From the NCBI GenBank assembly GCA_016218215.1, contig JACREM010000069.1, forward strand, positions 1-58,866: 58,866 nucleotides of DNA, written 5' to 3'. Source of the stretch: Candidatus Gottesmanbacteria bacterium. Lineage in GTDB: Bacteria > Patescibacteriota > Microgenomatia > UBA10105 > UBA927. The position numbers and the translations under genes were made by a program. The notes under the pieces are model-generated. The model worked only from the letters and a program-made list of their open reading frames with translations. It did no database searches and was not told the origin of the DNA. Of this stretch, positions 3,650-56,140 are shown piece by piece. Positions within the stretch are counted from its first letter, which is position 1, and the number at the start of each line of letters is the position of its first letter.

Positions 3650-4555
3650 ATGAATAAAGTGCAAACATTTTTTCGGACACTGTATCGTTCATTAATAGAT
3701 CCTATATATTACAAAGATGTTATTTCAGCAAAAATATCGTTTTCCCTAAAATATTTTTTTGTTCTTCATGTCCTCATTGTTTTTATATCTTCATCGGCAT
3801 TTGCGTTTACCCTCGGACGATACGATGTGTCCAAAATCGGGAAATTTTTACAATCAGTCTATCCTCGAAATTTTTCGCTTCATGTGCAAAACGGAGAGAT
3901 AGAGCTGAATCAGAATTTGCCCTTTGTTGTCCCGATTCCCAAAGAGCTTGAAGATGAAAAAGACCAAAAAGTAGCATCGCCTGCAGCGCTTGTCGTTTTT
4001 GACACGAACGACCATATGAGCTCTATTTCAAGCTTCTGGTCGTATAATGCTCTGGCAGTCGTGACAAAAAATGAGGTGTATTACCGAAAAGATGCGGATT
4101 CACGGGAAATTCGTGTGACGGAAATTCCAAAAGATGTTTCGTTTGAATTTTCCAGTACCATGCTTGATGAGAAGATTTCTTCAATCGTTCATCACCCATT
4201 TTTTTCACAGAAGTGGTACGTTCCTATTCTTTCTTTTTTCTATTTTTTGGTTTCATTTCCGTTTGTTTTGGCCTGGTCCTTTGTCGTTTCGTTTTTGTAC
4301 GCACTTTTTTCCTATATTGTTATTCGAGCGATATATAGTTCTCAATTTTCGTATAGTGCCTTGTGGCAGATGACGATTCATGCGCTGACCGGCGGAATAA
4401 TTTTAAGTACTGTAACGGATATATTTGGATTTCATGTTGTACATGGCGTCATCTTTTTCCTTCTGTACGGAGTCTGGATGTACGTCGTTATAAAAAACTT
4501 GCATGGTTTCAAGATGAATTCCCGCACGCCTCCTAGAAAGAAACGCTCAGTCTAG
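3650..4555 (+). CDS. DUF1189-like polytopic membrane protein
   Basis: The N-terminus FFRTLYRSLIDPIYYKDVISAKISFSLKYFFVLHVL resembles the opening of the DUF1189 family. The C-terminal half has several TM helices. Confidence 0.55.
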   Translation: MNKVQTFFRTLYRSLIDPIYYKDVISAKISFSLKYFFVLHVLIVFISSSAFAFTLGRYDVSKIGKFLQSVYPRNFSLHVQNGEIELNQNLPFVVPIPKELEDEKDQKVASPAALVVFDTNDHMSSISSFWSYNALAVVTKNEVYYRKDADSREIRVTEIPKDVSFEFSSTMLDEKISSIVHHPFFSQKWYVPILSFFYFLVSFPFVLAWSFVVSFLYALFSYIVIRAIYSSQFSYSALWQMTIHALTGGIILSTVTDIFGFHVVHGVIFFLLYGVWMYVVIKNLHGFKMNSRTPPRKKRSV

Positions 4556-4558
4556 TCT

Positions 4559-6133
4559 ATGAAACTTCTCTTCGGAAGTCTTTTCACTATTGTTCTGGTG
4601 TTTTTTCTTGTATTTATATTCATGAGGACTATACCGAGGACAAATTCCACTCCGGTCAATAGTTCAATGATAGTAAAAAAAGTTTTGAAACTTGCCGAAG
4701 AGATGCGCGTAGCTCATGGCAATGTGGAAATGGAGAGAGGTAAAGAGAGATCATTAGTATACGCTACTTCTTCTGCTGTTCTTCTTTCTGAAGGAGATGT
4801 CATACATACGGGGGCAGATGCGCTCGCAACACTTTTTTATAGCCGCGATACACGCGTGACCCTCGGACCTGATACGGATGTTATATTTCATCAAGCAAGT
4901 GTTTCTGCTTCACGGTTAGAAGAGATTGTTGGTTCTGTGTATGTGCGGTTTAAAAGAATTTTTGGGGTTTTGGAAGAGTTTTCTGTTGAAACGCCGACGA
5001 CGGTCGCTGTCGTCCGTGGAACGGCGTTTGGCTCGTTTGTGCGAAAAAATAAATCGGTTCGAACCGTAGTCACTCGAAACAACGTCTTCGTAACAAAAAA
5101 AACAGGAAAGAATGAATCTACGGCAAGCGCTGAAGTGTTGCCTGGACAACTTGTTGATGTATCCATTGAAGATAAACAGTTAAAAGTAGCCTCGGGGAGC
5201 GGAGAAGGTGAAGAGGGTGCGTTTGTGAAGATGAATGTTTCTATTGATACGCTTTTTGATACAAGCGATGATTATGATAATCCATTGTGTACGACCTGCA
5301 GTGCAAAAATACTTACGGAAAGTAGTGATTCTGCAAGCGTATCGGGTGAATATTTTCGATTTCGTGATACTCAAAAGAAAATCAGGGAAATCCCTTCGCT
5401 TCCACCGCTACCTATGCTGCAAACACTCTCCAGTGAGGGGCTGAATCGTGGATTGGTAAAGACAGATTCAGGAACATTTCCACTTACGTGCATCGGCGGG
5501 CGGATAGGAAGTTTTCGGGTTGTAACAGATGCGGCAAGTGAGAATGATTGTAAAAATGACTGTCCGGTATTGCCGCTTCATGAGTATGCAAAAAGAAATA
5601 ATGGATTTGCCGCGATGAACGGCATGTATTTTTGTCCGGCTGATTATCCATCATGCAGTGATAAAAAGAATTCTTTTGATACACTCTTTTTTCACTCGCG
5701 GGCAAAACGATATTTAAATTCTAGTAATAACGTGTATAGTGTTCTGCCATTTCTTGCGATAGATAGTTCCGGTCATCCGATCTTCAAGTTAAAGACTCTT
5801 GAATGGGGTCGGGATACGGGGATACAGGCAGGGATAGCGGGAAATCCTCTCCTTATTTCAGGAGGCAATCTCGTGTTTGATGAAAATTCTCTTGATGCAA
5901 AACAGCGGACAGTAAAATCCAATCGCGGTGCGGTGGTATCGGCCAATGGAATACTATCTTTATGTGTTGTGGGTTTAGCGACTGTCGGCGATAGTGCAAA
6001 AGTTTATAAATCGATAATGGTGGAAAATGCCATGAATATCGATGGCGGCGGGTCTACTGCTCTTTGGGTGAACGGGTCGTATATCTTTGGACCAGGACGG
6101 GCGCTTCCGAACGCGATAGTATTTACGCACTAG
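4559..6133 (+). CDS. Secreted FecR-domain / phosphodiester glycosidase (DUF2233, NAGPA-like) protein
   Basis: N-terminal signal anchor. FecR-like segment GDVIHTGADALATLFYSRDTRVTLGPDTDVIF. C-terminal NAMNIDGGGSTALWVNG motif typical of DUF2233. Confidence 0.65.
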   Translation: MKLLFGSLFTIVLVFFLVFIFMRTIPRTNSTPVNSSMIVKKVLKLAEEMRVAHGNVEMERGKERSLVYATSSAVLLSEGDVIHTGADALATLFYSRDTRVTLGPDTDVIFHQASVSASRLEEIVGSVYVRFKRIFGVLEEFSVETPTTVAVVRGTAFGSFVRKNKSVRTVVTRNNVFVTKKTGKNESTASAEVLPGQLVDVSIEDKQLKVASGSGEGEEGAFVKMNVSIDTLFDTSDDYDNPLCTTCSAKILTESSDSASVSGEYFRFRDTQKKIREIPSLPPLPMLQTLSSEGLNRGLVKTDSGTFPLTCIGGRIGSFRVVTDAASENDCKNDCPVLPLHEYAKRNNGFAAMNGMYFCPADYPSCSDKKNSFDTLFFHSRAKRYLNSSNNVYSVLPFLAIDSSGHPIFKLKTLEWGRDTGIQAGIAGNPLLISGGNLVFDENSLDAKQRTVKSNRGAVVSANGILSLCVVGLATVGDSAKVYKSIMVENAMNIDGGGSTALWVNGSYIFGPGRALPNAIVFTH

Positions 6134-10474: not shown

Positions 10475-12724
10475 CTTCCGACTCATGGTCGTCGGCCTTC
10501 GGACTGGCCATGAAGAGAGTATCAATGGATGTGTTGTAAGTCTAGGAATACGTTGCCAGAGAGCTTCAGTGACAAATGGCATGAAGGGGTGAAGAAGTTT
10601 AAGGATCGTAAGAAATACGTGACGAAATACGCTTAAAGCTTCTGAGTCTCCTTCTCCAAATCGAGTTTTATTTTCTTCTATATACCGGTCAGCTATCCTA
10701 TGCCAGGAAAATTCGTAGAGTTTTTTGGCTGCGTCTGAGAATCTGTATTTTTCCATATCTTTTGTCACTGAGGAGGTAAGCATATTGATCTCTGAGATAA
10801 GGCGTTTATCGGCGTCGTTTGTAAGTGCAGAGTGAAGTGTCTCGGTGTAAAAAGGTATTTCTTCGTTTTTCATTTTGGCGTTATCCAAAGACAGAAGCAG
10901 GAATCTTCCAATATTCCACAGTTTATTGGCAAAATTTCTCATGCCACGAATTTTGTCTTCGGAAAGGGCGAGATCATTTCCCGCTGCTGTCCCGAAAACG
11001 AGAGCAAACCGGAGAGCATCCGCTCCAAATTGGTCGATCATTTTGAGAGGATTGACAACATTCCCTTTTGATTTACTCATTTTTTGGCCCTTACTATCAC
11101 GAACGAGTCCATGAAGATAGACCGTTTTAAACGGAACTTTCCCTGTCATGTGAATTCCAAGCATAAGCATGCGGCATACCCACCAAGGAAGAATATCGTA
11201 GCCTGTTTCCATGACAGATGTAGGATAAAATTTGCTGTAGTCATTCGTGCCACTTGCACGAAGTGCGGCAAACGGCCATTGACCGGAAGAAAACCAGGTA
11301 TCAAATGTGTCGGTGTCCTGAACGAGATTTTTTCCGTGACACTCTGGGCATTCTGTTGGTATTGCACCGTCAGTTATAATCCAGTGATCTGATTTTTTAT
11401 TTTTGATATTTGATATTTGATTTAAACATGTTTGGCATTTCCATGCCGGTATCCTGATGCCCCAGACGTTTTGACGGCTGATATTCCAATCGTGGAAATT
11501 AGAGAGCCACTGTTTTGCCGTTTTTTCAAAACGCTTTGGTACAAATGCCACTTGTTTTTTATTTATTGCATCAGTAGCTTTTTTAGCAAGCGGGGAGACT
11601 TTTATATACCACTGCTCAAGCGGAAGCGGTTCTATGACCGTGCCGCATTTCCAACATGTGCCGATCCTATGCGTGTACGCTTCGTCTATTTTTATGAGAA
11701 GTCCATCGGTTTTCAGATCTTCAACCATCAGTGGCCGTACGATTGCAATTTTTTTGCCGTGATATTTTTCTGCTCGTTCCCGGTATTTTGGTTCAATGTT
11801 TTTTTGTGATAGAAACCATGAGAAGTCCATCCGTCCATGAAAATCGATGATAGGAGTGACCGGAAGATTAAATTTTTTCCCGAGTTCAAAGTCATGCGAA
11901 TCATGCGCAGGGGTGACCTTCATAATTCCAGTTCCAAACGATGGATCGACTTCCGGATCCGGAATGACCGTCATGCTGATGGGTCCCAAAAGCCCCATGA
12001 TCTCCAGTGTTTTTCCTATGTATTCTTTATATCGTTTGTCTTTGGGGTTTACCGCTAGTGCAGTGTCACGAAATTTTGTCTCGGGACGGGCTGTCGCGAT
12101 AGTAAATGGGCCATATTTCATGTAATACAGAGGATCGTTTCTCTCAATATACAACACTTCTAGGTCTGAAAATCCCGTTCCGTCTTTGGTGCAGTAGTTG
12201 ACAAGTCTGTTGTCCCGATAGATGAGTCCTTCATCAAAAAGTTTCTTAAATGATGTATAGACAGTGGCAATAATTTTTGGATTGAGGGTAAAAATATTCC
12301 GACTCCAGTCGAGTGAAAAACCAAGTTTACGGAGTTGGTTTTCCATGGTGCCGCGGTTTTCGTGAACAAAATTCCAGATGTCTTTATATAAAGTTTCCCT
12401 ATCAAAATCAAATCTGCTTTTGCCCATTTTGGCAAGATGCTTTTCGTACACAAATTGTGTTTCAAACCCTGCGTGGTCTGCCCCCGGAAGCCAAAGTGTG
12501 TTGTCTCCGAGCATCCTATGGTAGCGGATCATGATATCTTCCACCACATACATCGCATGACCTACGTGTAGATCTGCGTTTGCGTTGGGAGGAGGAAGGA
12601 GAACAGAAAATGGTTTAGACCCTTTTTTGTCATTTGGGGAAAAATATCCGTTTTTTTCCCAGAGTGCATAGATTTCGTCTTCTGTCGTTTGAGGTGAGTA
12701 TGCTTTATCAAGAGTAGAGTCCAT
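10448..12724 (-). CDS. valS: Valine--tRNA ligase (short form without C-terminal coiled coil)
   Basis: PPPNANADLHVGHAM (HIGH), WLPGADHAGFETQ, KMSKSKGN. 758 aa. TGgTATAAT lies 7 nt upstream of the ATG. Confidence 0.92.
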   Translation of the reverse strand: MDSTLDKAYSPQTTEDEIYALWEKNGYFSPNDKKGSKPFSVLLPPPNANADLHVGHAMYVVEDIMIRYHRMLGDNTLWLPGADHAGFETQFVYEKHLAKMGKSRFDFDRETLYKDIWNFVHENRGTMENQLRKLGFSLDWSRNIFTLNPKIIATVYTSFKKLFDEGLIYRDNRLVNYCTKDGTGFSDLEVLYIERNDPLYYMKYGPFTIATARPETKFRDTALAVNPKDKRYKEYIGKTLEIMGLLGPISMTVIPDPEVDPSFGTGIMKVTPAHDSHDFELGKKFNLPVTPIIDFHGRMDFSWFLSQKNIEPKYRERAEKYHGKKIAIVRPLMVEDLKTDGLLIKIDEAYTHRIGTCWKCGTVIEPLPLEQWYIKVSPLAKKATDAINKKQVAFVPKRFEKTAKQWLSNFHDWNISRQNVWGIRIPAWKCQTCLNQISNIKNKKSDHWIITDGAIPTECPECHGKNLVQDTDTFDTWFSSGQWPFAALRASGTNDYSKFYPTSVMETGYDILPWWVCRMLMLGIHMTGKVPFKTVYLHGLVRDSKGQKMSKSKGNVVNPLKMIDQFGADALRFALVFGTAAGNDLALSEDKIRGMRNFANKLWNIGRFLLLSLDNAKMKNEEIPFYTETLHSALTNDADKRLISEINMLTSSVTKDMEKYRFSDAAKKLYEFSWHRIADRYIEENKTRFGEGDSEALSVFRHVFLTILKLLHPFMPFVTEALWQRIPRLTTHPLILSSWPVRRPTTMSRKLLSSSGRS
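11390..11424. repeat. Heptanucleotide array (5 units, TGATWTT on plus = AAWATCA in coding sense) inside valS
   Basis: TGATTTT TTATTTT TGATATT TGATATT TGATTTA. It encodes the NQISNIKNKKSD insertion between Cys pairs of ValRS. Confidence 0.8.
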
Positions 12725-12754: not shown

Positions 12755-13894
12755 TTAAATTTCGACTGATAAATTCGATACGGCAGTGATTTCGTTCCAA
12801 GAGATTGGTGTACTAAATATAGATGCATAGATTCCTATAGTAACAGCGTTGTCGGTACACAAAGAGAATGGGGGAGCGAAAAGGCGAAATGATATGCCGG
12901 AGTTCTGAATTGCTCCTTCAAACTTTTCTCGAAGTCGTGTATTTGATGCTACTCCACCCGAGAGAAGAATTGAATGAGCATTATGTATTTTGGCAGCATG
13001 GATCGTTTTTCTTACTAATACATCTGTAATTGATTCCTGAATTTCGTACGCACATTGTTGTATGGTTTCATCTTTATATTGTTTTTGCTTTTTAAGTGAA
13101 TCGACCACTCGTACTGCTGCGGTTTTGAGTCCGCTAAAAGAAAAACTGTAGGGCTTATCCGGAAGATATGGTCTTGGGAGCGTAATTTTTGAATTTTGAT
13201 CTTTGATTTTTGATTTGAGATTTTGAGTGGTGGAAAATTGTGACGCTGCCTCCTGGATGGCTGCACCTCCCCGGTTTTCAAACCCTAGGAGTCGCGCTGT
13301 TTTATCAAATGCTTCGCCAGCTGCATCGTCAAGAGTGCCACCGAGCCATTGAATATTTTTTATTGACTTCATTACATAGAGCTCAGTGTGTCCGCCGCTC
13401 ACAACCAGAGAAATTGCGGGAAAAGCTATGAGCCTTTTGCTTTCAGCTTCCAGGATATTAGCTGACGGCTGACGGCTGACGGCTGACGGCTGAATAATAA
13501 AATTCGCAAACATATGTGCAATGACGTGATTGACAGGAATGATAGGAATGCCTGTTGCAAAAGAGATTGTTTTAGCAGTTTCTATTCCAATAAGAAGAGA
13601 CCCGATCAGTCCTGGACCTATAGTGACCGCAATCGCATCAATATACCTTTTTATTGTTTGCATATATGTTTCATTTGTATTTTTTGTTCTTAGCGGTGCC
13701 AATGCTTCTGTGAGGACCGGAATGATAGACCGAATTTGTTCTCGGGCAGCTAATTCCGGTACTATCCCGCCGTATTTTTTATGTACAAGAGTAGACGAAG
13801 CTATGCTTGATGAAAGAATCGTTTTCCCATTGAGAATTACAGCCGCGGCGGTTTCATCGCAAGAGGATTCTATGGCGAGAATATGTGAATTCAT
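12755..13894 (-). CDS. tsaD: tRNA N6-adenosine threonylcarbamoyltransferase (Kae1/Gcp family) with two repeat-encoded insertions
   Basis: ILAIESSCDETAAAV, VSGGHTELY, LCTDNAVTIG. At 379 aa it is longer than the usual ~340 aa because of the KSKIKDQNSKI and QPSAVSRQPSA insertions. Confidence 0.9.
   Translation of the reverse strand: MNSHILAIESSCDETAAAVILNGKTILSSSIASSTLVHKKYGGIVPELAAREQIRSIIPVLTEALAPLRTKNTNETYMQTIKRYIDAIAVTIGPGLIGSLLIGIETAKTISFATGIPIIPVNHVIAHMFANFIIQPSAVSRQPSANILEAESKRLIAFPAISLVVSGGHTELYVMKSIKNIQWLGGTLDDAAGEAFDKTARLLGFENRGGAAIQEAASQFSTTQNLKSKIKDQNSKITLPRPYLPDKPYSFSFSGLKTAAVRVVDSLKKQKQYKDETIQQCAYEIQESITDVLVRKTIHAAKIHNAHSILLSGGVASNTRLREKFEGAIQNSGISFRLFAPPFSLCTDNAVTIGIYASIFSTPISWNEITAVSNLSVEI
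13187..13226. repeat. Heptanucleotide array (TTTGAWY units) inside tsaD
   Basis: TTTGAAT TTTGATC TTTGATT TTTGATT, followed by degenerate units. It encodes LKSKIKDQNSKI. Confidence 0.75.
13461..13493. repeat. Perfect (GCTGACG)x4.7 heptanucleotide array inside tsaD
   Basis: 33 nt, in frame, encoding QPSAVSRQPSA. Confidence 0.9.
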
Positions 13895-14341: not shown

Positions 14342-14369
14342 ATTGGTAGTATTGGACATTGGTAGTATT
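14342..14369. repeat. Direct repeat ATTGGTAGTATT x2 just downstream of the vanW stop
   Basis: Copies at 14342-14353 and 14358-14369. The same word occurs on the opposite strand at 56107-56140. Confidence 0.8.
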
Positions 14370-17374: not shown

Positions 17375-18298
17375 ATGTATGATTTAACCCTTCGGGACGC
17401 TGTATTGGTCGCTGTTTCTTATTCAGATATTTTTTCTTATCCTCTCACAATAGAGGAATTAATCCGTTTTCTTCCGTATAGATCAGATGCATCGAGGATA
17501 CGAATTCAAAGAGTAGTAAATGCGCTTCATTTACTGACTCGAGACGGATTTATTACATTTTCAAAAGCTTCGGGATATATTGCGCTTCGAAAAAAAAGAG
17601 ACACAATTGCCCAGAGGAAATGGAATATTGTGTATAGCGTGTTATGGATATTTCGGTATATTCCAACAGTTCGTCTCGTTGCAGTAACAGGAGCATTATC
17701 AATGAACAATGTCGAAAAAAAAGATGACATTGATCTTTTGGTGATTGCTGAAGGAAAGAGCGTGTGGATTACACGTTTTATCGTGACTTTTTTATTTGAT
17801 GTCTTTGGCATACGAAGAAAGCCAAACCAACGTCATGTTTCTAATTTATTTTGTCTGAATATGTATCTTTCATCCGACGCGTTAGAAATCCCGAAAGAAA
17901 AAAGAAATTTTTATATTGCACATGAAATCGTCCAGATGGTGCCTGTTTTTGATAGAAAGAATACGTATAATTTATTTTGTCAAAAAAACTTGTGGGTGAG
18001 AGACATGCTCCCGCATGCACTAAAAAGGGTACAAATCAGGACAGGACATACTCGTATTGGATTTGGTATTGTCGGGGAATGGGTACAGCAATTATTTTTT
18101 ACCAGTATGGAATATTTAGATGTGTTGTTTATGCGCGTGCAGCTTTTGTATATGAAGACTCGTCATACCCGTGAAGTAGTCCTTCGGGATATGATTCGAT
18201 TTCATCCTTTTGATGCAAACGAGTGGGTCTATAAAAAATTAGCTATTCGATTGCGACGAAAGAAAATACCACTTGACAAGATTTTTTTCTCCCATTAA
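17375..18298 (+). CDS. Hypothetical protein with minimal nucleotidyltransferase-fold motif
   Basis: GALSMNNVEKKDDIDLLVI resembles the GS...D.D motif of pol-beta-type nucleotidyltransferases. No other recognisable motif. Confidence 0.4.
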   Translation: MYDLTLRDAVLVAVSYSDIFSYPLTIEELIRFLPYRSDASRIRIQRVVNALHLLTRDGFITFSKASGYIALRKKRDTIAQRKWNIVYSVLWIFRYIPTVRLVAVTGALSMNNVEKKDDIDLLVIAEGKSVWITRFIVTFLFDVFGIRRKPNQRHVSNLFCLNMYLSSDALEIPKEKRNFYIAHEIVQMVPVFDRKNTYNLFCQKNLWVRDMLPHALKRVQIRTGHTRIGFGIVGEWVQQLFFTSMEYLDVLFMRVQLLYMKTRHTREVVLRDMIRFHPFDANEWVYKKLAIRLRRKKIPLDKIFFSH

Positions 18299-28897: not shown

Positions 28898-29725
28898 TCA
28901 AGTATTTATATGAAATAATTTTTTGGCGTTTAATGTTGTTTGATTTTCTATCATGGATTCTGGCTCGTGTATTAAGGAAGATATTGTTTTTGCAATAAGT
29001 GGAATATATTTTGGTTCGTTCCGTTCTCCACGATGAGGTTCTGGAGTAAGATACGGAGCATCTGTTTCGAGGAGTAATGTATCTAGACGCATAGACGGAA
29101 GAATCGATTGTATATGCTTTGTGTAGGTGATATTTCCGTCAACACCGAAGTATAAATTTCGTTCAGTTGCCATTCTCATATCCTGAAGTCCTCCGGAAAA
29201 ACAGTGGATGACACCCAGTGGCATTTTGGGAAGCGCATCGAGTACCGAAAAAAGATCCTCGAACGCATCGCGGCAGTGAATGATGGCTGGAAGGCCGTAT
29301 TTTATGGCAAGGAGTAGTTGATCTTCGAATAAATGTTTCTGTTGGTCTTTTTTGCCATCTGCTTTTTCGCTTTTGAATTTGTGGTAATCCAATCCGCATT
29401 CGCCGATAGCGATAATTGTCCCCACTTCGCTTCTCGCTACGCTTAAGCTACGCGGGGTAAACTTTGTACCCTGGTATTTTTTTAGTAACAACTCGAGGTC
29501 GTGGGTGTCGGGGGATTTGTTGGCTTCGTACGGGTGATATCCGATGCTTGCAAAAAGGGACTGCGGTTGTGTAAGCGCAATGTCTATGGCTTTTTGAGAA
29601 AAATAAAGGTTAACTCCCGGGATGATAATTCTTTTTACTCCTGTTTTTTTTGCATTGCCGATTACAGAAACTACGTCTGTATTAAATTCAGGAAGATTGA
29701 GATGACAGTGAGTATCGATGTACAT
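28898..29725 (-). CDS. tatD: TatD-family metal-dependent hydrolase/DNase with a palindrome-encoded insertion
   Basis: MYIDTHCHLN, AIGECGLDYH, PAIIHCRDA, ETDAPYLTP. Start moved to the ATG at 29725. Confidence 0.85.
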   Translation of the reverse strand: MYIDTHCHLNLPEFNTDVVSVIGNAKKTGVKRIIIPGVNLYFSQKAIDIALTQPQSLFASIGYHPYEANKSPDTHDLELLLKKYQGTKFTPRSLSVARSEVGTIIAIGECGLDYHKFKSEKADGKKDQQKHLFEDQLLLAIKYGLPAIIHCRDAFEDLFSVLDALPKMPLGVIHCFSGGLQDMRMATERNLYFGVDGNITYTKHIQSILPSMRLDTLLLETDAPYLTPEPHRGERNEPKYIPLIAKTISSLIHEPESMIENQTTLNAKKLFHINT

Positions 29726-29732
29726 GATAGAA

Positions 29733-29788
29733 ATATCAAAAATCAAATATTAAATATCAAAAAATACAGATTTAAAATCAAAAAATAT
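29733..29788. repeat. Eight-unit heptanucleotide array (ATATCAA/AAATCAA family) between the metG stop and the tatD start
   Basis: ATATCAA AAATCAA ATATTAA ATATCAA AAAATAC AGATTTA AAATCAA AAAATAT. The 7-nt phase is kept across all 56 nt. Confidence 0.8.
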
Positions 29789-33553: not shown

Positions 33554-36460
33554 ATGAGTGATGCTGATAAACGAATTTTAAATGATGAGCAGAAGGATGC
33601 GGTAGAACATGGCGAAGGGCCGCTTCTTATCATAGCCGGAGCGGGAACGGGGAAAACGACCGTCATAACCGAGCGGATCGTACACCTTATCACTTCAGGA
33701 AGAGCAAAGCCTCAGGAGATACTAGCGCTCACGTTTACTGAAAAAGCAAGCCAAGAGATGGAGGAGCGGGTAGATAAAGCGCTTCCGTATGGTGTAACTC
33801 AGATGTGGATTTCGACATTTCATGCGTTTTGCGATCGGGTGATTCGGGCTCACGGGATACATATTGGTATAGATCCCGGATTTCGCGTGATGACAGAGGC
33901 AGAAACGATACAATTTTTTAAGCGTCATTTATTTTCGTTTGGCTTGTCGTATTTCAGGCCTCTCGGGAATCCCCAAAAATTTATCCAAGGGATGATTACG
34001 CACTTTTCAAGGCTTAAAGATGAAGACGTGACACCCAATGCTTATTTAGATTGGGTGAAATCAAATTTTAAAAATCAAAAATCAAAAATGCAGACTGAAG
34101 AGAAAGAAGAACGGGAAAAATATAGGGAATTGGCGGAGGCGTATGGTCTGTATGAAAAATTAAAACTCAAGGAGAGTGTATTTGATTTTAGTGACCTTAT
34201 TTCTTACTGTCTCAAGCTTTTTCGTGAGAGGTCATCGGTACTTAAGGAGTATCAAGATCAATTTTCGTATGTATTGATCGACGAATTTCAGGATACAAAT
34301 TTTGCGCAAAACGAACTTGCGATGCTTCTTGCAGCTCCCAAAAACAATCTTACTGTCGTCGGTGATGATGATCAGGCCATTTACCGATGGCGTGGAGCAG
34401 CAGTGTCTAATATTGTCCAGTTTCGGTCAACATACAAGGAAGCTAAAGTAATAGTGTTGACAAAAAATTACCGGTCAACACAGGAAATTTTAGATAGGTC
34501 TCATGATGCCGTAGAACACAATAACCCGGATCGGTTAGAAGTGGTAGAAAAAATAGATAAGAAACTCGAAAGCATGAGGCGGATAAAAGGCGAACAGGTA
34601 CAGTTGATTTTGACTAACCGTGGAGAGGATGAGGCAGATGAGGTTGTAAAGCTAATATTAAAAATTAAAAATCAAATATCAAATAAATATGAGTGGAGGG
34701 ACTTTGCTATTCTTGTGCGTGCAAATGCGCACGCAGAACCATTTGTTCGTTCTCTTTCCCGCGCCGGAATACCATATCAGTTCCTAGGACCAGGCCAGCT
34801 TCTCCGTCAAGCGGAGATAAAAGATCTGATCGCGTACCTGACGCTTCTAACAAACTTTTACGATAATGTTGCGTTTTATCGAGTGCTTTCGATGGACTGG
34901 ATGCATATAGACGGAAGAGATATCGTCGCAATCGCCGCGTCGGCTCGAAAGCAAGGCATATCTCTTTTTGAGGTGTGCGAAAAAGTTGAATCGTTATCGA
35001 TTTCTGAAGCATCAAAGAGTGCAGTCGCATCTTTTGTTTCTATGGTTCATCGTCACATGGAGCGTATGAAAAAAGAATCGGCTGGTCAGATACTCTACTA
35101 TTTTTTGGAAGATTCGGGACTGCTCGTAAACCTCGCAGCGTACAAGACTGAAGCAGACGAACGAAGAGCCATGAACGTTGCTAAATTTTTTAATAAGCTC
35201 AAGTCATATGAGACGACACATGGCGACGCCAGTGTCTTTGCTGTTTTGGATTGGATTTCGCTTTCACTTGATCTCGGCGAATCTCCGGCTTCAAGCGACA
35301 CCGACTGGGCAGAGGAAAATGCAGTAAATATATTAACAATTCATGGTTCAAAAGGTCTTGAATTTCCGGTCGTATTTGTGGTGAATCTCGTGTCCGGCAG
35401 ATTCCCAACCATAGAGCGCAAAGAACAGATTCCTCTTCCGGATGTGTTTATACATGAAATACTCCCATCAGGAGAATACCACGAACAGGAAGAGCGTCGG
35501 ATTTTTTACGTGGCGATGACCCGCGCACGGGACCATTTAATAGTATCCGGATCGAAGTTTTATAACGAAGGAAAACGTGAAAGAAAACTTTCACCGTTTA
35601 TAGGAGAGGCGCTGGGCGAAAGAATATCCAATATCCAATATCCAATATCCAACGAGGAGAAGCAGTTATCATTTTTAGATTGGGGCAAGAAAGAGGAGGC
35701 GAAGCCTTCTCCCAAAAATGCATCACCAGTATCATTTCTCTCATACTCACAGCTCAATTCCTTTGAGACGTGTCCTTTGCAGTATAAATATCGATATATA
35801 GTGAAACTTCCTGTTCCGCCGTCTGCTGCGTTGTCGTTTGGCGATACCATTCATAAAACGGTGTATGCATTTTATGATCTGGTACGAAAAGGGGAGAGAC
35901 CGACGTCTAAAACACTCCTTTCACTGTATACTGGTTTCTGGTCGAGGATCGGGTACGGAAATGCATCATATGAGGAAAAAATGAAAGCGCATGGAGTAGA
36001 GCTTCTCGAAGGATTTTATAAAAAGGGATACATAAAAGGACATGTGCCAATTGCTCTAGAAGAGCCGTTTAAGATAAAAATAACTCCCCATCTGACACTT
36101 GGCGGCAAAGTAGACCGTATAGATGCACGGGAGGACGGCAAAGTAGAAATTATAGATTACAAGACCGGAAAGACTCCGAAAAATAGAGATGTGACGAAAG
36201 ATTTTCAGCTTTCAGTTTACGCTCTCGCGGCGACTGCGCCGACACTGTACACAAGAAAACCTGAAGATGTCATCGTATCTTTTTATTTTTTTGAAGATCA
36301 GATGAAGGTGAGCGGTACCCGAACACAGGAACAGCTTGATGAGGCGCGGGAGACTGTCAAGAAGCGTGCGGAGGAAATACAAACGAGTACTTTTTCGCCT
36401 ACTTCAGGAAAACACTGTGATTTTTGTGAATTTAAACTCATCTGTGAAGCCTGGCAGTAA
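33554..36460 (+). CDS. UvrD/Rep-family helicase fused to C-terminal PD-(D/E)XK (AddB/Cas4-like, Cys4) nuclease
   Basis: AGAGTGKTT, DEFQDTN, VGDDDQAIYRWRGA, TIHGSKGLEFPVVF, YVAMTRAR. C-terminus has CPLQYKY ... GKVDRIDAREDGKVEIIDYKTGK ... CDFCEFKLIC. Confidence 0.85.
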   Translation: MSDADKRILNDEQKDAVEHGEGPLLIIAGAGTGKTTVITERIVHLITSGRAKPQEILALTFTEKASQEMEERVDKALPYGVTQMWISTFHAFCDRVIRAHGIHIGIDPGFRVMTEAETIQFFKRHLFSFGLSYFRPLGNPQKFIQGMITHFSRLKDEDVTPNAYLDWVKSNFKNQKSKMQTEEKEEREKYRELAEAYGLYEKLKLKESVFDFSDLISYCLKLFRERSSVLKEYQDQFSYVLIDEFQDTNFAQNELAMLLAAPKNNLTVVGDDDQAIYRWRGAAVSNIVQFRSTYKEAKVIVLTKNYRSTQEILDRSHDAVEHNNPDRLEVVEKIDKKLESMRRIKGEQVQLILTNRGEDEADEVVKLILKIKNQISNKYEWRDFAILVRANAHAEPFVRSLSRAGIPYQFLGPGQLLRQAEIKDLIAYLTLLTNFYDNVAFYRVLSMDWMHIDGRDIVAIAASARKQGISLFEVCEKVESLSISEASKSAVASFVSMVHRHMERMKKESAGQILYYFLEDSGLLVNLAAYKTEADERRAMNVAKFFNKLKSYETTHGDASVFAVLDWISLSLDLGESPASSDTDWAEENAVNILTIHGSKGLEFPVVFVVNLVSGRFPTIERKEQIPLPDVFIHEILPSGEYHEQEERRIFYVAMTRARDHLIVSGSKFYNEGKRERKLSPFIGEALGERISNIQYPISNEEKQLSFLDWGKKEEAKPSPKNASPVSFLSYSQLNSFETCPLQYKYRYIVKLPVPPSAALSFGDTIHKTVYAFYDLVRKGERPTSKTLLSLYTGFWSRIGYGNASYEEKMKAHGVELLEGFYKKGYIKGHVPIALEEPFKIKITPHLTLGGKVDRIDAREDGKVEIIDYKTGKTPKNRDVTKDFQLSVYALAATAPTLYTRKPEDVIVSFYFFEDQMKVSGTRTQEQLDEARETVKKRAEEIQTSTFSPTSGKHCDFCEFKLICEAWQ
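34058..34092. repeat. Heptanucleotide array (AAATCAA family, 5 units) inside the helicase-nuclease gene
   Basis: AAATCAA ATTTTAA AAATCAA AAATCAA AAATGCA. It encodes SNFKNQKSKMQ. Confidence 0.8.
34657..34684. repeat. Heptanucleotide array (ATTAAAA x2, ATCAAAT x2) inside the helicase-nuclease gene
   Basis: It encodes LKIKNQISNK. Confidence 0.75.
35624..35651. repeat. Perfect (ATATCCA)x4 heptanucleotide array inside the helicase-nuclease gene
   Basis: It encodes ISNIQYPISN. Confidence 0.9.
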
Positions 36461-36487: not shown

Positions 36488-37316
36488 GGTAGTACAGTTC
36501 TTTTCCGCCGAAGCCTTCCTTGAATTTGGTAAATCCTTTCCACTGAGTATTTTCCTTAGGAATTCGTTCATCCCATACGCCGATAAAGTCAAACCATTTC
36601 ATCCTTTTTGTTTTTGACAGTTTCATGGCTTCAAAAACAAGAAGTGTCGGGGCAGAGAGTTTTTTCCCCTCATGTGTCGCGCCTGCGATCCAGTAATATG
36701 CTGTCTGTTTATGGAAAATGAGAAGGATGCCCCCGATAGGATTATGTGAAGCGGAAGCTGGTACTGTTTTATATGCAAGAAGAATAGATGCATGATCTGG
36801 TGAAAATGTATCCCAGAGTTCTCTGGTGCCGTGGGTTGTGATAAACCCTAAAAAACCTGCGGATGTATTTTTGACGGCAATAAGATCATAAATCGCGTGT
36901 GATTCCCGAATAAGCACGCCGTTTTTTTCTGCGCGCCTGACGGCGCGTCTCTTGGCTTCGGAAAAATGTCCAAATATGGTGTCTACAGGTGGTGCAAGAT
37001 CAGCGCGGATGGTTTTTGTCGCAAGATATGGAGTGGTATTGATTTTTACATACCCAGATAATGATTTGATCCATGGTGTAAATATTTGTTGAGATACACG
37101 TTCTGAAGGCTCAATAGCGAGAGTTTTGATGGTATATTTTTTGATGACGGCTAAAAGAGAAGGAAGAGGAGGGAGAGAGGAAATTCGCTGAAGTTTTGCA
37201 AGAGTGCCCAAAAAGGGAATTTTTTTCACGAATACTGCGCATTGACCAAGAGAAGTTACCTGCCAACCAAGTGACTGAATATACTTTCTATACAGTGGTG
37301 ACTGTTGAAGTTCCAT
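36471..37316 (-). CDS. FemAB-family peptidoglycan interpeptide-bridge aminoacyltransferase paralog (short)
   Basis: Similar to the upstream paralog in the C-terminal half (YYWIAGATHEGKKLSAPTLLVFEAM..., WKGFTKFKEGFGGK). Its ATG shares an A with the upstream TAA (TAATG). Confidence 0.65.
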   Translation of the reverse strand: MELQQSPLYRKYIQSLGWQVTSLGQCAVFVKKIPFLGTLAKLQRISSLPPLPSLLAVIKKYTIKTLAIEPSERVSQQIFTPWIKSLSGYVKINTTPYLATKTIRADLAPPVDTIFGHFSEAKRRAVRRAEKNGVLIRESHAIYDLIAVKNTSAGFLGFITTHGTRELWDTFSPDHASILLAYKTVPASASHNPIGGILLIFHKQTAYYWIAGATHEGKKLSAPTLLVFEAMKLSKTKRMKWFDFIGVWDERIPKENTQWKGFTKFKEGFGGKELYYPVSKL

Positions 37317-38341
37317 TATATGCGACTAAAGAAATGGAGAAGTGAAAAACGAGCGGTGTCTGCAAATGTATAGAGTGAATAGAGAACTGGCTGAAGCACT
37401 AGGTCAAATGAGCCGATAAATTCTATGAGAGTCGGACTATATCCCTCCTTAAATTTATGAAATCCAAACCAAGGATCCTTCTCGTTGGACCCGTTAGCTT
37501 TCGGAGGTCCGAGCGCTCCCCAGAGGTCTATGGTTTTTATACCATGCTTTTTCCCCCATCGAATAATCTCCCAGAGCATCAGATTTGGTGCCATGACGTC
37601 TCTATGATCCCGTGATGATGCACCGTAGGGATAATAAAGCGTGTCGTGGAGGATAAACATAACCCAAGCTGCAAGCGTTTTCCCTTCATATGTCGCAGTA
37701 AAGAGCTGTGCATTCTGGTTTTTTGAAAATATGTTCCAGAGAGTTTTCTGATAAATTTCGTTATGCGCATAAAACCCCTGTCTTTTGGTGGTTTCTTTTG
37801 AGAGTCTGATAAACTCTTCAAATGCATTGTCGCTATTATCTTCGGCAATTTTTACCCCTTTTTTTTGAGCGAGACGAATATTGTATCGGGTTTTTTGATG
37901 AAAAGACTGTAGAAGTTCCTCTTCGGTTTTTGCGATATCGAGAATGAATGTGTACTTCGTAAATAATGGATGATGGGATGGTTTTAGAGCCGATGGCTGA
38001 CAGCTTTCAGCTGACAGCTGAATATTTGGTTCAAGTTGAATAAATATAGCATTGTTCTTTTTTCCTAGATCCTTGAGGGTTGAGATCATGAAGTCATAAG
38101 GTTTTGGACCTTTGGGGAAATACCCGATTGTATATGGCAATTTTGGAATTTTATGAAATGAAATCTGCCATGCATCGACTGGTTTTTTATTTTTGAGCAT
38201 GAGGAGTCGTTCGACTTTTACGCCCATCGCTTTCCGAAATTCCCCCCACGCCCATGATTGGAGTGGATGAGTAGCGAGTGAGTCCCACAGCGATCGGTCA
38301 GATTTTTCTGGAGTGCGCATCGACAGATTTTCTGAAGTCAT
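37316..38341 (-). CDS. FemAB-family peptidoglycan interpeptide-bridge aminoacyltransferase (lipid II amino acid transferase)
   Basis: HPLQSWAWGEFRKAMG, TRYNIRLAQKKGV, LYYPYGASS, PNLMLWEIIRW, FGFHKFKEGY. Confidence 0.75.
   Translation of the reverse strand: MTSENLSMRTPEKSDRSLWDSLATHPLQSWAWGEFRKAMGVKVERLLMLKNKKPVDAWQISFHKIPKLPYTIGYFPKGPKPYDFMISTLKDLGKKNNAIFIQLEPNIQLSAESCQPSALKPSHHPLFTKYTFILDIAKTEEELLQSFHQKTRYNIRLAQKKGVKIAEDNSDNAFEEFIRLSKETTKRQGFYAHNEIYQKTLWNIFSKNQNAQLFTATYEGKTLAAWVMFILHDTLYYPYGASSRDHRDVMAPNLMLWEIIRWGKKHGIKTIDLWGALGPPKANGSNEKDPWFGFHKFKEGYSPTLIEFIGSFDLVLQPVLYSLYTFADTARFSLLHFFSRI
37996..38023. repeat. Heptanucleotide array (GCTGACA GCTTTCA GCTGACA GCTGAAT) inside the FemAB gene
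   Basis: It encodes IQLSAESCQPS. The unit is one substitution away from the tsaD GCTGACG array. Confidence 0.8.
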
Positions 38342-53635: not shown

Positions 53636-53670
53636 TATAGAGTTTAGGGTTTAGAGTGTAGAGTTTAATA
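53636..53670. repeat. Heptanucleotide array (TATAGAG TTTAGGG TTTAGAG TGTAGAG TTTAATA) between hrcA and grpE
   Basis: It begins 8 nt after the hrcA stop and ends 7 nt before the grpE ATG. Confidence 0.75.
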
Positions 53671-56106: not shown

Positions 56107-56140
56107 CAATACTACCAATACTACAAATACTACCAATAAG
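56107..56140. repeat. Nonanucleotide array (CAATACTAC x2, AAATACTAC, CAATAAG) just after the dnaK stop
   Basis: It begins 6 nt after the TAA. It is the reverse complement of the ATTGGTAGTATT word seen at 14342-14369. Confidence 0.8.

Follow-up and report, generated by a model that had tools for sequence, protein, structure and literature searches.

In-frame heptanucleotide arrays in the tsaD gene of a CPR bacterium are members of a genome-wide class of tandem repeats

The tsaD gene of an uncultured CPR bacterium (Candidatus Gottesmanbacteria bacterium; genome of 1.27 Mb, 97% complete) carries two tandem arrays of heptanucleotide units that are real, in frame and placed in loops of the encoded protein. 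They belong to a class of about 170 such arrays in the genome, and their sites persist in relatives while the unit sequences turn over. Our preferred reading, to which we give a probability of roughly 0.6, is that the tsaD arrays are ordinary members of this class: tolerated heptamer repeats that arise through slippage or gene conversion and appear in the protein as disordered loops. Most probably they serve no function themselves, and they are not on/off switches. The window referred to below is the whole stretch of DNA that was analyzed, 58,866 nucleotides of contig JACREM010000069.1.

Results

Two heptamer arrays occupy extra loops of TsaD

The ORF at 12755-13894 matches Pfam PF00814 (E 8.9e-68) and the PDB TsaD chains (best E 6.8e-58), and the genome contains no second tsaD match. 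The HxxxH motif (H123, H127) and the TDN motif (T347, D348, N349) are invariant in an alignment with TsaD from other phyla. Judged by its PF00814 domain, HxxxH motif and C-terminal TDN, the 379-aa product is a member of the TsaD / Kae1 / Qri7 family, and its AlphaFold model has a mean pLDDT of 85.9 and a pTM of 0.86. An exact-protein look-up found no identical protein on record elsewhere, the 90% protein cluster has one member, and a flank-gap-flank pattern scan found no metagenome contigs matching the array flanks. The features of the gene are as follows.

12755..13894, minus strand: tsaD (tRNA N6-adenosine threonylcarbamoyltransferase), 379 aa, single copy, intact
13461..13493, minus strand: array B, perfect, (GCTGACG)x4.7 on the + strand, CGTCAGC on the sense strand; 33 nt, TRF period 7
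13439..13447, minus strand: lone GCTGAAAGC unit (sense strand), just downstream of array B in the same extra loop (ANILEAESK); direct reading
13187..13226, minus strand: array C, imperfect, TTTGAWY on the + strand, ATCAAAN on the sense strand; about 5.9 units by TRF
Predicted array-derived peptides of TsaD: QPSAVSRQPSANILEAESK and NLKSKIKDQNSK

Array B was called by TRF with 4.7 copies, 100% matches and a score of 66, and encodes QPSAVSRQPSA (IQPSAVSRQPSA) at residues of about 134-145. Array C was called with period 7 (5.9 copies, 74% matches, 14% indels) and also with period 14, and encodes NLKSKIKDQNSKI at residues of about 223-236. A preliminary description of the window had reported both arrays with these peptides, together with a protein longer than is usual in the family, and all three points are borne out: TsaD measures 379 aa here, whereas the solved bacterial proteins have 327-343 aa and eight of the shorter same-family relatives 322-347 aa; these eight include every genome with no arrays in its sample apart from G002. 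The ortholog alignment that had been proposed as a check places the residues of both arrays in gaps relative to the PDB TsaD chains and to TsaD from other phyla. About 19 extra residues, which include the GCTGAAAGC unit, follow the HxxxH helix, and about 12 precede LPRP. The only segments of the AlphaFold model with pLDDT below 50 are the array loops (residues 136-144 and 146-152 at array B, 229-234 at array C) and residues 37-42. The two arrays run in the same direction, are separated by 235 nt and have positions that correspond to 35% and 59% of the gene length.

Both arrays are lineage-specific in-frame additions in loops. In the strict sense of an insertion, as originally claimed, this holds for array B, which is a gap against PDB chains and other phyla, and only partly for array C, where many relatives have arrays at the modal loop length. 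An artefact was rejected, as the independent assemblies of relatives have arrays at the same loop sites. Because seven is not a multiple of three, translation passes through the unit in each of the three frames and yields a peptide with a period of seven residues; such peptides, for example QPSAVSR or KSKIKDQ, are hydrophilic and unstructured.

The arrays belong to a genome-wide class

We counted 169 arrays in the genome: 104 in genes, 19 at gene edges and 46 in spacers. The ORF-internal share is therefore 62%, yet array density is about fourfold greater outside genes. Among perfect tandem repeats of at least three copies, period 7 accounts for 41, while periods 5, 6 and 8-15 give 0-1. The genome-wide periodicity scan suggested in the preliminary description gave a clear answer, with 131 period-7 arrays at a TRF score of at least 40 against 0 in three 5th-order Markov simulations. 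The largest families are AGCTATC (19 arrays), AAAAATC (18), AAAGATC (17) and AAATATC (16). Array length has its mode at 30-33 nt (4-5 units), arrays of 18-24 nt are few, and perfect runs fall off steeply above 34 nt. Many arrays contain interrupting variant units, and many occupy the entire 40-50-nt spacer between a stop codon and the next start. The longest perfect arrays, 6-13.7 units of AGCTATC, are found in spacers or where genes begin; ftsH (13.7 units) and lgt, for instance, each have one upstream. Further arrays of the window are as follows.

11390..11423, minus strand: ATCAAAN-family array in valS (NQISNIKNKKSD); TRF; Pfam tRNA-synt_1, E 2.2e-120
29731..29761, no strand assigned: ATCAAAN-family array, mostly in an intergenic spacer; TRF; classed as an edge array and grouped with the non-genic ones
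34058..34089, plus strand: AAATCAA array in a UvrD/PD-(D/E)XK helicase-nuclease gene (33554-36460); TRF, Pfam
34654..34690, plus strand: ATTAAAA/ATCAAAT array in the same helicase-nuclease gene; TRF
35623..35652, plus strand: perfect (AATATCC)x4.3 array in the same gene, encoding ISNIQYPISN; TRF, 100% matches, score 60
37996..38021, minus strand: GCTGACA-family array in a FemAB-family gene (37316-38341); TRF; Pfam FemAB, E 2.8e-39
53638..53667, no strand assigned: TAGAGTT array, intergenic, filling a 50-nt spacer; TRF

The first 16 nt of the array at 29731..29761 overlap the end of an ORF call (28898..29746), and the array at 53638..53667 lies 10 nt past a stop codon and 11 nt ahead of the next start. 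TRF thus located arrays in the fem gene, in valS, in the helicase gene and in spacers, wherever recurrence of the tsaD unit families had been reported, and it found the array noted at 35624 to be perfect as described.

The units are not random in sequence. TGA/TCA occurs in the units of 111 of the 169 arrays against an expected 46 +/- 6, with the consensus TWKYTGA, and spacer arrays behave likewise. In 94 of the 104 genic arrays the sense unit is stop-free, and 82 of those 94 have stops on the antisense strand. The stop-free genic orientation pointed out earlier is therefore correct as an observation; it reflects a survivorship filter, since the spacers between co-directional genes hold arrays in both orientations without bias (13 forward, 10 reverse) and we found no replication-strand bias of arrays beyond gene orientation, and it is partly circular with ORF calling. 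A coupling to transcription or replication was rejected on the same unbiased orientation. The spread over genes, edges and spacers, with the higher density outside genes, fits a DNA-level process filtered by selection.

We found no conserved flanks around the arrays, and the order of unit variants was not significantly shared between arrays (30 and 4 pairs against 24.7 and 1.6 in shuffled data). With flanks unconserved and unit order at chance level, a dispersed element with defined ends was rejected. The variant unit came second in the array in 11 of 17 cases; the comparison of second with third position (11 against 5) was not significant, and the bias is mostly one of ascertainment between interior and terminal units. 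Writing of the arrays by a reverse transcriptase or in a telomerase-like manner was also rejected, the 97%-complete genome having no RVT_1 (PF00078) reverse transcriptase gene.

A 7-nt unit shifts the reading frame when gained or lost, and the concern about frameshifts in an essential gene raised in the preliminary description is logically sound. The arrays could be contingency loci in which one-unit slippage switches tsaD and other genes or creates population heterogeneity. Perfect arrays, of which the window has two, are slippage-prone, and the longest AGCTATC arrays at gene starts and in spacers could modulate expression. Moreover, heptanucleotide phase variation is known from the Haemophilus influenzae hmw promoter (PMC8262952) and from NeuO of Escherichia coli K1 (PMC13001214), where gain or loss of a 7-nt unit changes expression or frame. 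Those arrays, however, are long and polymorphic and sit in the promoter or at the 5' end of surface or modification genes, whereas the tsaD arrays have 4-6 units and lie mid-gene and in frame in a housekeeping gene. The tsaD, valS and helicase genes are single-copy housekeeping genes; their arrays are short (4-5 units), mid-gene and in frame, the orthologous sites of relatives are in frame too, and many arrays hold interrupting variant units. A one-unit change would join two open frames at only 4 of 169 arrays, and on this count of mendable frame breaks we rejected frameshift switches. The contingency reading as a whole is, in our judgment, extremely improbable.

The uniform size of the arrays and their habit of filling 40-50-nt spacers would also suit RNA or DNA cis elements, such as sites for a cold-shock or S1-type single-strand-binding regulator, pause sites or insulators, with the coding copies kept for that role. 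The TWKYTGA core is found in genes and spacers alike and is one base away from TAACTGA, for which translational regulation has been proposed (PMC4679880). Against this, spacer arrays have no orientation preference relative to their flanking genes, and even within the genus a site does not keep its unit sequence. The tsaD array region itself has unremarkable RNA structure (fold z-score -0.71, no hairpin formed by the arrays alone) and no Rfam match, and an RNA element was rejected on these grounds. A cis-element role is accordingly quite improbable.

Loop sites persist in relatives while units turn over

Of the seven genic array sites in the window, six also hold a short-period repeat in a same-genus genome (G001), whose flanking proteins are 64-88% identical; at four of these sites the unit differs. 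At the array B site G001 carries a degenerate version of the same family, broken by a GC-rich insert, with the GCTGAAAGC unit doubled (GCTGAAAGCTGAAAGC). At the array C site it has (AGCTATC)x3. Its valS ortholog (88% identical) has a different repeat, the 8-mer CAATTCAA, at the site of our 11390..11423 array. In the helicase-nuclease gene, a different and degenerate 7-mer corresponds to 34058..34089, and a longer array of the same family, split by a GC-rich insert, corresponds to 34654..34690; at the 35623..35652 site there is no array but a segment of exactly equal length with a GGGAGAC...GTCTCCC inverted repeat. The fem site at 37996..38021 is occupied by (TCAAATT)x5.

The same picture extends to a wider set of TsaD proteins. 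Among 120 relatives, 12 have a protein periodicity of seven residues and two a periodicity of eight, with none at five, six or nine, and the seven-residue periodicity is concentrated in loops B and C. The tsaD gene is open through the loops in 20 of 20 relatives, and in each relative examined the orthologous array sites keep the reading frame. Heptamer arrays of other units occur in loop C of many relatives, and these array-bearing versions have the modal length of the family, which points to homogenization without a change in length. In the genome studied here, loop C exceeds the mode by seven residues, that is, three units. A general stepwise expansion by three units (seven residues) was rejected, as the loop C histogram of 118 relatives peaks at 37-38 and has no 45/52/59 series. 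The loop sites thus persist while their unit sequences turn over.

One may ask whether the array peptides are selected for a protein function, as flexible linkers, interaction surfaces or solubility tags. They are hydrophilic and lie in loops, and loop C keeps a loose pattern across different units (aromatic or Leu, any residue, Ile or Val, any residue, Asn or Ser). This pattern is accounted for by the native K-F-x-I codons beside LPRP, which seed the repeat. The same units also occur in spacers, the peptide at one site is wholly different in the congener (KSKIKDQ here, SYQLSAI there), and relatives with no arrays in the sample lack the loops, their TsaD measuring 322-346 aa with the exception of one genome at 379 aa (G002). 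Selection for peptide function is on balance very improbable.

Array units recur as inverted arms of PF05635 genes

Three genes of the genome score above the Pfam cut-off for PF05635, the family of 23S rRNA intervening-sequence (IVS) proteins and Avd-like four-helix bundles, and the window contains none.

Contig C50, 18416-18733: PF05635 gene
Contig C8, 7426-7728: PF05635 gene
Contig C74, 2944-3222: PF05635 gene

All three of these bona fide genes have pairing inverted heptamer arrays within tens of nucleotides, with arm duplex energies of -45.5, -20.4 and -22.3 kcal/mol, respectively. The arm units (AGCTTTC/GCTGATA, AATATCA/TTTGATC and TATCCAA-like) are those of the dominant solo array families, and arms and solo arrays are equal in size, at about 4-5 units. 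The same cassette architecture, each with its own unit, was seen at at least 7 of 12 PF05635 loci of relatives. Across 18 genomes, array density and PF05635 density are correlated (Spearman 0.76, p 2.5e-4), in a test that ignores phylogeny, and all four genomes without a bona fide PF05635 gene have 0 arrays per 100 kb.

These observations raise the possibility that the arrays belong, as solo arms or recognition sites, to a small selfish or protein-guided system centered on the PF05635 genes, in which the cassette or its multimeric protein creates, copies or stabilizes blocks of 4-5 heptamers and the tsaD copies are tolerated strays. PF05635 proteins resemble Avd, a nucleic-acid-handling accessory protein of diversity-generating retroelements (PMC10053308), and the small genes here are bracketed by inverted arms of the tsaD array families. 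Classical IVS elements, however, are embedded in helices of 23S rRNA, and Avd has a reverse transcriptase as its partner, whereas the cassettes here stand between protein genes in a genome that has no PF00078 gene. The numbers also fit poorly: 3-6 PF05635 genes face about 170 arrays, arms make up 0-4 of 11-16 sampled arrays in relatives, and three genomes (G002, G018 and G007) have 4-9 PF05635 genes yet 0 arrays in 100 kb. Flanks are unconserved and unit order is unshared. The tsaD arrays are direct rather than inverted, with no PF05635 gene nearby, and so do not bracket such a gene as the arrays on the three contigs do. Recruitment of existing arrays as arms by the cassettes may be all that lies behind the correlation. 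We regard an origin of the arrays in a PF05635 system as rather unlikely.

Discussion

We favor the reading of the tsaD arrays as tolerated repeats. A DNA-level process in 7-nt register, acting across the entire genome, would make the arrays and keep their units homogeneous; the likeliest candidates are slipped-strand mispairing while DNA is replicated or repaired and gene conversion in which units pair out of register. Of the copies in genes, only those survive that add a multiple of three nucleotides, present the stop-free strand as sense and fall in disordered surface loops. Such sites stay occupied for long periods while the unit sequence changes. The selective survival of genic copies is established, or largely so; the slippage or conversion mechanism is what we infer from the arrays themselves.

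Several features sit uneasily with simple slippage. The length mode of 30-33 nt counts against a simple stepwise process, under which numbers should fall monotonically with length, but a peak is also possible in length-dependent slippage models. Simple slippage does not predict the non-random TGA/TCA units, the few dominant families common to the PF05635 arms, or a density that is patchy among close relatives and correlated with that of PF05635. For perfect arrays to occur at the modal loop length, homogenization would have to preserve length, a postulated step. It is conceivable, if doubtful, that a dedicated activity beyond generic slippage writes or homogenizes TWKYTGA-like blocks of about 31 nt (4-5 units) over permissive DNA whose length stays the same and, functionally tied to the PF05635 proteins, continually rewrites the loops of TsaD, ValRS and other essential proteins in CPR and some other uncultured lineages.

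Heptamer repeats have precedents. In the work of Mrazek, Guo & Shah (2007; as summarized in PMC4692102 and PMC4679880), heptamers are over-represented among the long simple-sequence repeats (LSSRs) of many prokaryotes, with polymerase slippage proposed as their source, and coding-region repeats tend to have units in multiples of three. The arrays described here share with those LSSRs the 7-nt direct tandem repeat, the period-7 excess and the patchy distribution across phyla. They differ in lying mostly in ORFs, essential genes included, at conserved loop sites and with a mode of about 31 nt. The preliminary description had likened them to the short tandemly repeated repetitive (STRR) heptamers of heterocystous cyanobacteria (Calothrix PCC 7601, Nostoc; PMC4692102). 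Both form tandem arrays with between a few and a dozen copies, in which few unit families recur at many loci; the likeness does not extend to location, as STRRs are mainly intergenic, like the heptamers of Xanthomonas and Nostoc, whereas our host is a CPR bacterium with most copies in ORFs. Nor does it cover the unit sequences, since GCTGAYN, ATCAAAN and similar units presumably match no cyanobacterial STRR unit.

A near counterpart in sequence is the TAACTGA repeat of Beggiatoaceae, cyanobacteria and Bacteroidetes (MacGregor 2015, PMC4679880), from which the dominant TAGCTGA unit here (AGCTATC rotated, on the other strand) differs by one base; the tsaD units themselves are CGGCTGA and (A/T)TTTTGA-like, not TAACTGA. 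Both kinds have forward strands with stops in all frames, 'reverse' copies in ORFs and inverted pairs, and the ORF-internal peptides are LSAISYQ here and LSVISYQ there (PMC4679880). In Beggiatoa, however, the sets are mostly intergenic, forward and end 1 nt before the start codon, whereas our intergenic arrays run in both directions. The preliminary description knew of no such repeats inside conserved genes of this kind of organism. This needs qualification, in that 'reverse' ORF-internal heptamers are known (PMC4679880), though mostly in hypothetical proteins or protein ends and not in CPR essential enzymes such as those concerned here, where the loops of TsaD, ValRS, a UvrD-type helicase and a FemAB protein are occupied. 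The present arrays are best seen as a variant of the known LSSR, STRR and TAACTGA heptamers.

Two further systems invite comparison at the level of the protein. The genic repeats of Borgs reportedly have unit lengths compatible with the reading frame. Borg tandem repeats resemble ours in being perfect, recent, fast-evolving ORF repeats that add disordered segments (PMC9879509). Here, by contrast, the 7-nt unit is read in three frames, and it is whole-array lengths divisible by three that survive. Rickettsia palindromic elements, which Ogata et al. in 2000 reportedly described as 100-150 bp elements of conserved sequence placed in frame in protein genes, are alike in that a reduced genome tolerates selfish or neutral repeated DNA within surface parts of its essential proteins. 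They are unlike the present arrays, which are about 31 nt long, tandem, without conserved flanks and without a hairpin of their own.

On the practical side, the arrays inflate protein length and lower apparent identity, TsaD being 64-70% identical to its same-genus ortholog against 75-88% for neighboring genes, and near gene starts they can lead gene callers astray, ftsH being a case in point. The class offers features open to testing: the block of about 31 nt, the TGA-containing core, length-preserving homogenization at conserved loops and co-occurrence with Avd-like PF05635 cassettes. It also sharpens the old question of why heptamers are favored among prokaryotic long simple-sequence repeats. 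For the organism, these arrays show that a reduced genome can add and rewrite protein loops with sequence read in three frames, a simple source of disordered segments in essential enzymes.

Results

Heptamer arrays within tsaD

The genome to which the contig belongs (1.27 Mb, 96 contigs, 42.5% GC) yields a single tsaD match, an ORF that matches Pfam PF00814 (E 8.9e-68) and whose top TsaD match in the PDB has an E value of 6.8e-58. As the preliminary description had claimed, this gene holds a perfect GCTGACG array and a second heptamer array, in frame; TRF places both inside the ORF.

12755-13894, minus strand: tsaD, ORF encoding a 379-aa TsaD
13461-13493: array B, perfect (GCTGACG)x4.7, read as CGTCAGC on the sense strand, encoding IQPSAVSRQPSA
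13187-13226: array C, imperfect, period 7, read as ATCAAAN on the sense strand, encoding NLKSKIKDQNSKI

No sequences near-identical to the array region were found in the protein records, metagenome contigs, and protein clusters searched. When the protein is aligned by HMMER with solved TsaD structures, both arrays correspond to gaps, one loop adding ~19 residues behind the HxxxH helix and the other ~12-13 ahead of the conserved LPRP. The same gaps appear in an alignment with 11 TsaDs from other phyla, in which the TDN motif and the metal-binding residues H123 and H127 do not vary. In an AlphaFold2 model built on this alignment, which was confident overall (mean pLDDT 85.9, pTM 0.86), pLDDT below 50 was limited to residues 37-42, 136-144, 146-152, and 229-234, the last three segments being the two array-encoded loops. 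Judged from these alignments and the predicted structure, both arrays are additions in loops, as had been proposed. The arrays were also said to extend TsaD past the usual family size, and eight of the shorter same-family relatives indeed have TsaDs of 322-347 aa; these eight take in every relative whose sample held no arrays (see below) except G002, whose TsaD has 379 aa.

A genome-wide class of period-7 arrays

Among perfect tandem repeats of at least three copies, period 7 is represented 41 times and each of the periods 5, 6, and 8-15 at most once. TRF returned 131 period-7 arrays with a score of at least 40, compared to none in three 5th-order Markov simulations, which places heptamer periodicity well above chance. 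The only other strongly enriched period, 14, is composed of the same arrays. A merged set of 169 arrays (TRF score ≥36) comprises 104 within ORFs, 19 at ORF edges, and 46 in spacers, the density being about four times higher outside genes than inside in a genome that is 90% coding. The dominant unit families are AGCTATC (19), AAAAATC (18), AAAGATC (17), and AAATATC (16), and the unit consensus is TWKYTGA; TGA/TCA is present in 111 of the 169 units, compared to 46 ± 6 among shuffled units, an enrichment also seen in spacers. Array length peaks at 30-33 nt in genes and spacers alike, while perfect runs plateau up to 34 nt, beyond which there are only four AGCTATC arrays of 76-96 nt.

The two longest perfect arrays, (AGCTATC)x13.7 at C53:7941-8036 and x13.3 at C48:2067-2159 (C-numbers denote contigs of this genome), lie directly upstream of a probable ftsH start and 3 nt upstream of lgt, respectively. 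The former is stop-free and lengthens the ORF call upstream by ~40 codons; both are candidates for expression modulation or mis-called gene starts. At window 53638-53667, C19:9212, C26:1189, C41:10578, C90:17505, and elsewhere, many stop-to-start spacers of 40-50 nt are almost filled by one ~30-nt heptamer array that starts 4-15 nt past the stop codon and ends 4-11 nt ahead of the next start. A separate short-period family is represented by two 9-nt-period arrays in spacers of the window, on opposite strands (56107-56138 and 14342-14369; CAATACTAC and its complement ATTGGTAGTATT).

With three or more units, a heptamer array shows its unit in all three frames. Genic arrays were claimed to take the stop-free orientation, and this holds for 94 of the 104 ORF-internal arrays, 82 of which have stops on the opposite strand. 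Such an orientation is a necessary product of selection and of ORF calling itself. Arrays between co-directional genes showed no bias (13 forward, 10 reverse, 13 ambiguous), and orientation relative to GC skew merely mirrors gene orientation; the bias is therefore a filter and not a trait of the generating process.

We also considered a dispersed element, an RNA element, and a switch. The first was rejected, as array flanks have nothing in common and arrays agree in the order of their unit variants no more than a shuffled control does. RNA folding of the tsaD array region was unremarkable, and Rfam gave no match to it. A switch was likewise rejected, since gain or loss of one unit would fuse two open frames, each of 80 or more codons, at just 4 of the 169 arrays and relatives' tsaD genes are all open through the loops. 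The four arrays (C54:3271-3302, C59:14706-14728, C70:10934-10974, and C95:11252-11282) mark possible frameshifted or phase-variable genes.

Persistent sites and changing units

The window has a syntenic counterpart in the same-genus genome G001 (identities: ValRS 88%, helicase 83%, FemAB 75%, TsaD 64%). The sites compared bear out the recurrence of the GCTGACA family in fem and of the ATCAAAN family in valS and the helicase gene, as well as the second perfect array reported for the window.

valS: ATCAAAN here; 8-mer CAATTCAA in G001
fem: GCTGACA family here; (TCAAATT)x5 in G001
tsaD loop C: ATCAAAN here; (AGCTATC)x3 in G001
tsaD loop B: perfect CGTCAGC here; degenerate CGTCAGC-family copies split by a GC-rich insert in G001
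helicase site 1: AAATCAA here; a different, degenerate 7-mer in G001
helicase site 2: ATTAAAA/ATCAAAT here; same family, longer, split by a GC-rich insert in G001
helicase site 3: perfect (AATATCC)x4.3 here; no array in G001 but an identical-length segment with a short inverted repeat

Six of the seven genic sites thus carry a short-period repeat in both species, with different units at four. Perfect arrays must be young relative to the divergence of the two congeners. In the G001 valS ortholog (contig C16, ~88036-90297; loci L038-L039), the period-8 repeat has 2.6 copies and the total length is nearly equal; another relative, G017, is rich in arrays of period 8 (9 per 100 kb). A register other than 7 therefore also occurs.

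Across the family, loops B and C and two further sites (D and E) are insert hot spots in TsaD. Loop C heptamer arrays with differing units occur in at least nine genera and a Saccharibacteria MAG. Among the 120 closest TsaD cluster representatives, 12 showed 7-residue periodicity (eight cases in loop C, three in loop B), two showed period 8, and none showed periods 5, 6, or 9. Together with the congener comparison, this survey indicates that the sites persist while unit sequences turn over. Array-bearing loop C has the family's modal length (36-38 residues between anchors), the window's being 7 residues, or three units, longer; homogenization of the loop would thus often proceed without a change in length.

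The same TsaD loops also tolerate small repeats of a second class, GC-rich palindromic inserts read in frame, in several relatives: L034 (sites C and E, CCTGCCTCGCCGGCAGGCAGG occurring twice), L023, L016, and L033 (site D), and L021/L030 (site B). Loop C tails of 44-60 residues among the 120 relatives resemble this class.

Distribution and association with PF05635 cassettes

Array density (period 7, TRF score ≥40) was compared on samples of 100 kb per genome for 15 relatives; for G030 and G006 the samples were 80 and 20 kb, respectively. The trait is patchy. The window's genome has 10.3 arrays per 100 kb and G001 has 3; six genomes from the same family, order, or class have 6-11, two others have 1, and seven same-family genomes (one sampled at just 20 kb) have none. 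Some non-CPR MAGs matched by the TsaD query (Nitrospirae, Thermodesulfovibrionales, Bacteroidia) have several heptamer arrays in or close to tsaD, so the phenomenon is not limited to CPR bacteria. Several unrelated uncultured bacteria have 3-9 arrays per 4-7 kb tsaD neighborhood, some inside tsaD: L012 (Saccharibacteria MAG CAYMCH010000034.1, 968-2546), L011 (Bacteroidia MAG, 4228-4851), and L014 and L003 (Thermodesulfovibrionales and Nitrospirae MAGs).

Three PF05635 (23S-rRNA-IVS-protein, Avd-like) genes score above the Pfam cut-off in the genome, and all are flanked by inverted heptamer arrays able to pair.

C50:18040-18860: arms AGCTTTC and GCTGATA/GCTGAAA, -45.5 kcal/mol
C74:2840-3345: arms AATATCA and TTTGATC, -22.3 kcal/mol
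C8:7310-7860: inverted arms, -20.4 kcal/mol

At C50, the cassette additionally includes a third array, AGCTATC, at 18060-18096 and an 87-aa ORF that matches no Pfam family. Arm units are the genome's dominant solo array families. Such arms accompany PF05635 at seven or more of 12 loci fetched from relatives, the unit differing from locus to locus. Array and PF05635 densities correlate across 18 genomes (Spearman 0.76, p 2.5e-4, uncorrected for phylogeny). Four genomes without bona fide PF05635 had no arrays in their samples, and neither did three with 4-9 PF05635 genes. The majority of arrays are not PF05635 arms, and no RVT_1 reverse transcriptase was found in the genome. As co-occurrence, the link is real; it may mean no more than that cassettes take arrays as their arms.

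Discussion

The arrays belong to the heptanucleotide simple-sequence repeats, a kind spanning LSSRs, the cyanobacterial STRRs to which they had been likened, and the TAACTGA repeats of Beggiatoaceae. TAGCTGA, the dominant unit in this genome, differs from the last by a single base (PMC4679880), and its reverse translation reads LSAISYQ rather than LSVISYQ. Unlike in the known repeats, the majority of copies lie within genes, essential ones included, arrays are uniform in size and occupy loop sites conserved across genera while their units turn over, and unit families are common to arrays and Avd-like cassette arms. Our literature search returned no paper describing such a phenomenon in CPR bacteria.

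We give a probability of about 0.6 to a reading in which a 7-nt-register process at the DNA level would make and re-homogenize short arrays genome-wide and selection would purge genic arrays except in-frame, stop-free-oriented copies located in loops. These survivors would be read in all three frames, giving disordered, hydrophilic peptides of 7-residue periodicity. Slipped-strand mispairing and out-of-register conversion are the likely candidates for the process; a slippage-type explanation has already been proposed for heptamer LSSRs in general (Mrazek 2007, as cited in PMC4692102 and PMC4679880). The native loop C codons for K-F-x-I beside LPRP (AAATTCAGAATT-like) include a 4-nt direct repeat at 7-nt spacing, which may be why arrays recur there.

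This reading leaves four features without explanation, namely the 31-nt size mode, the TGA-containing unit core, length-neutral homogenization, and the PF05635 association. They keep alive a more specific 'writer' model, a dedicated DNA-writing activity in a 7-nt register tied to PF05635, which we consider unlikely.
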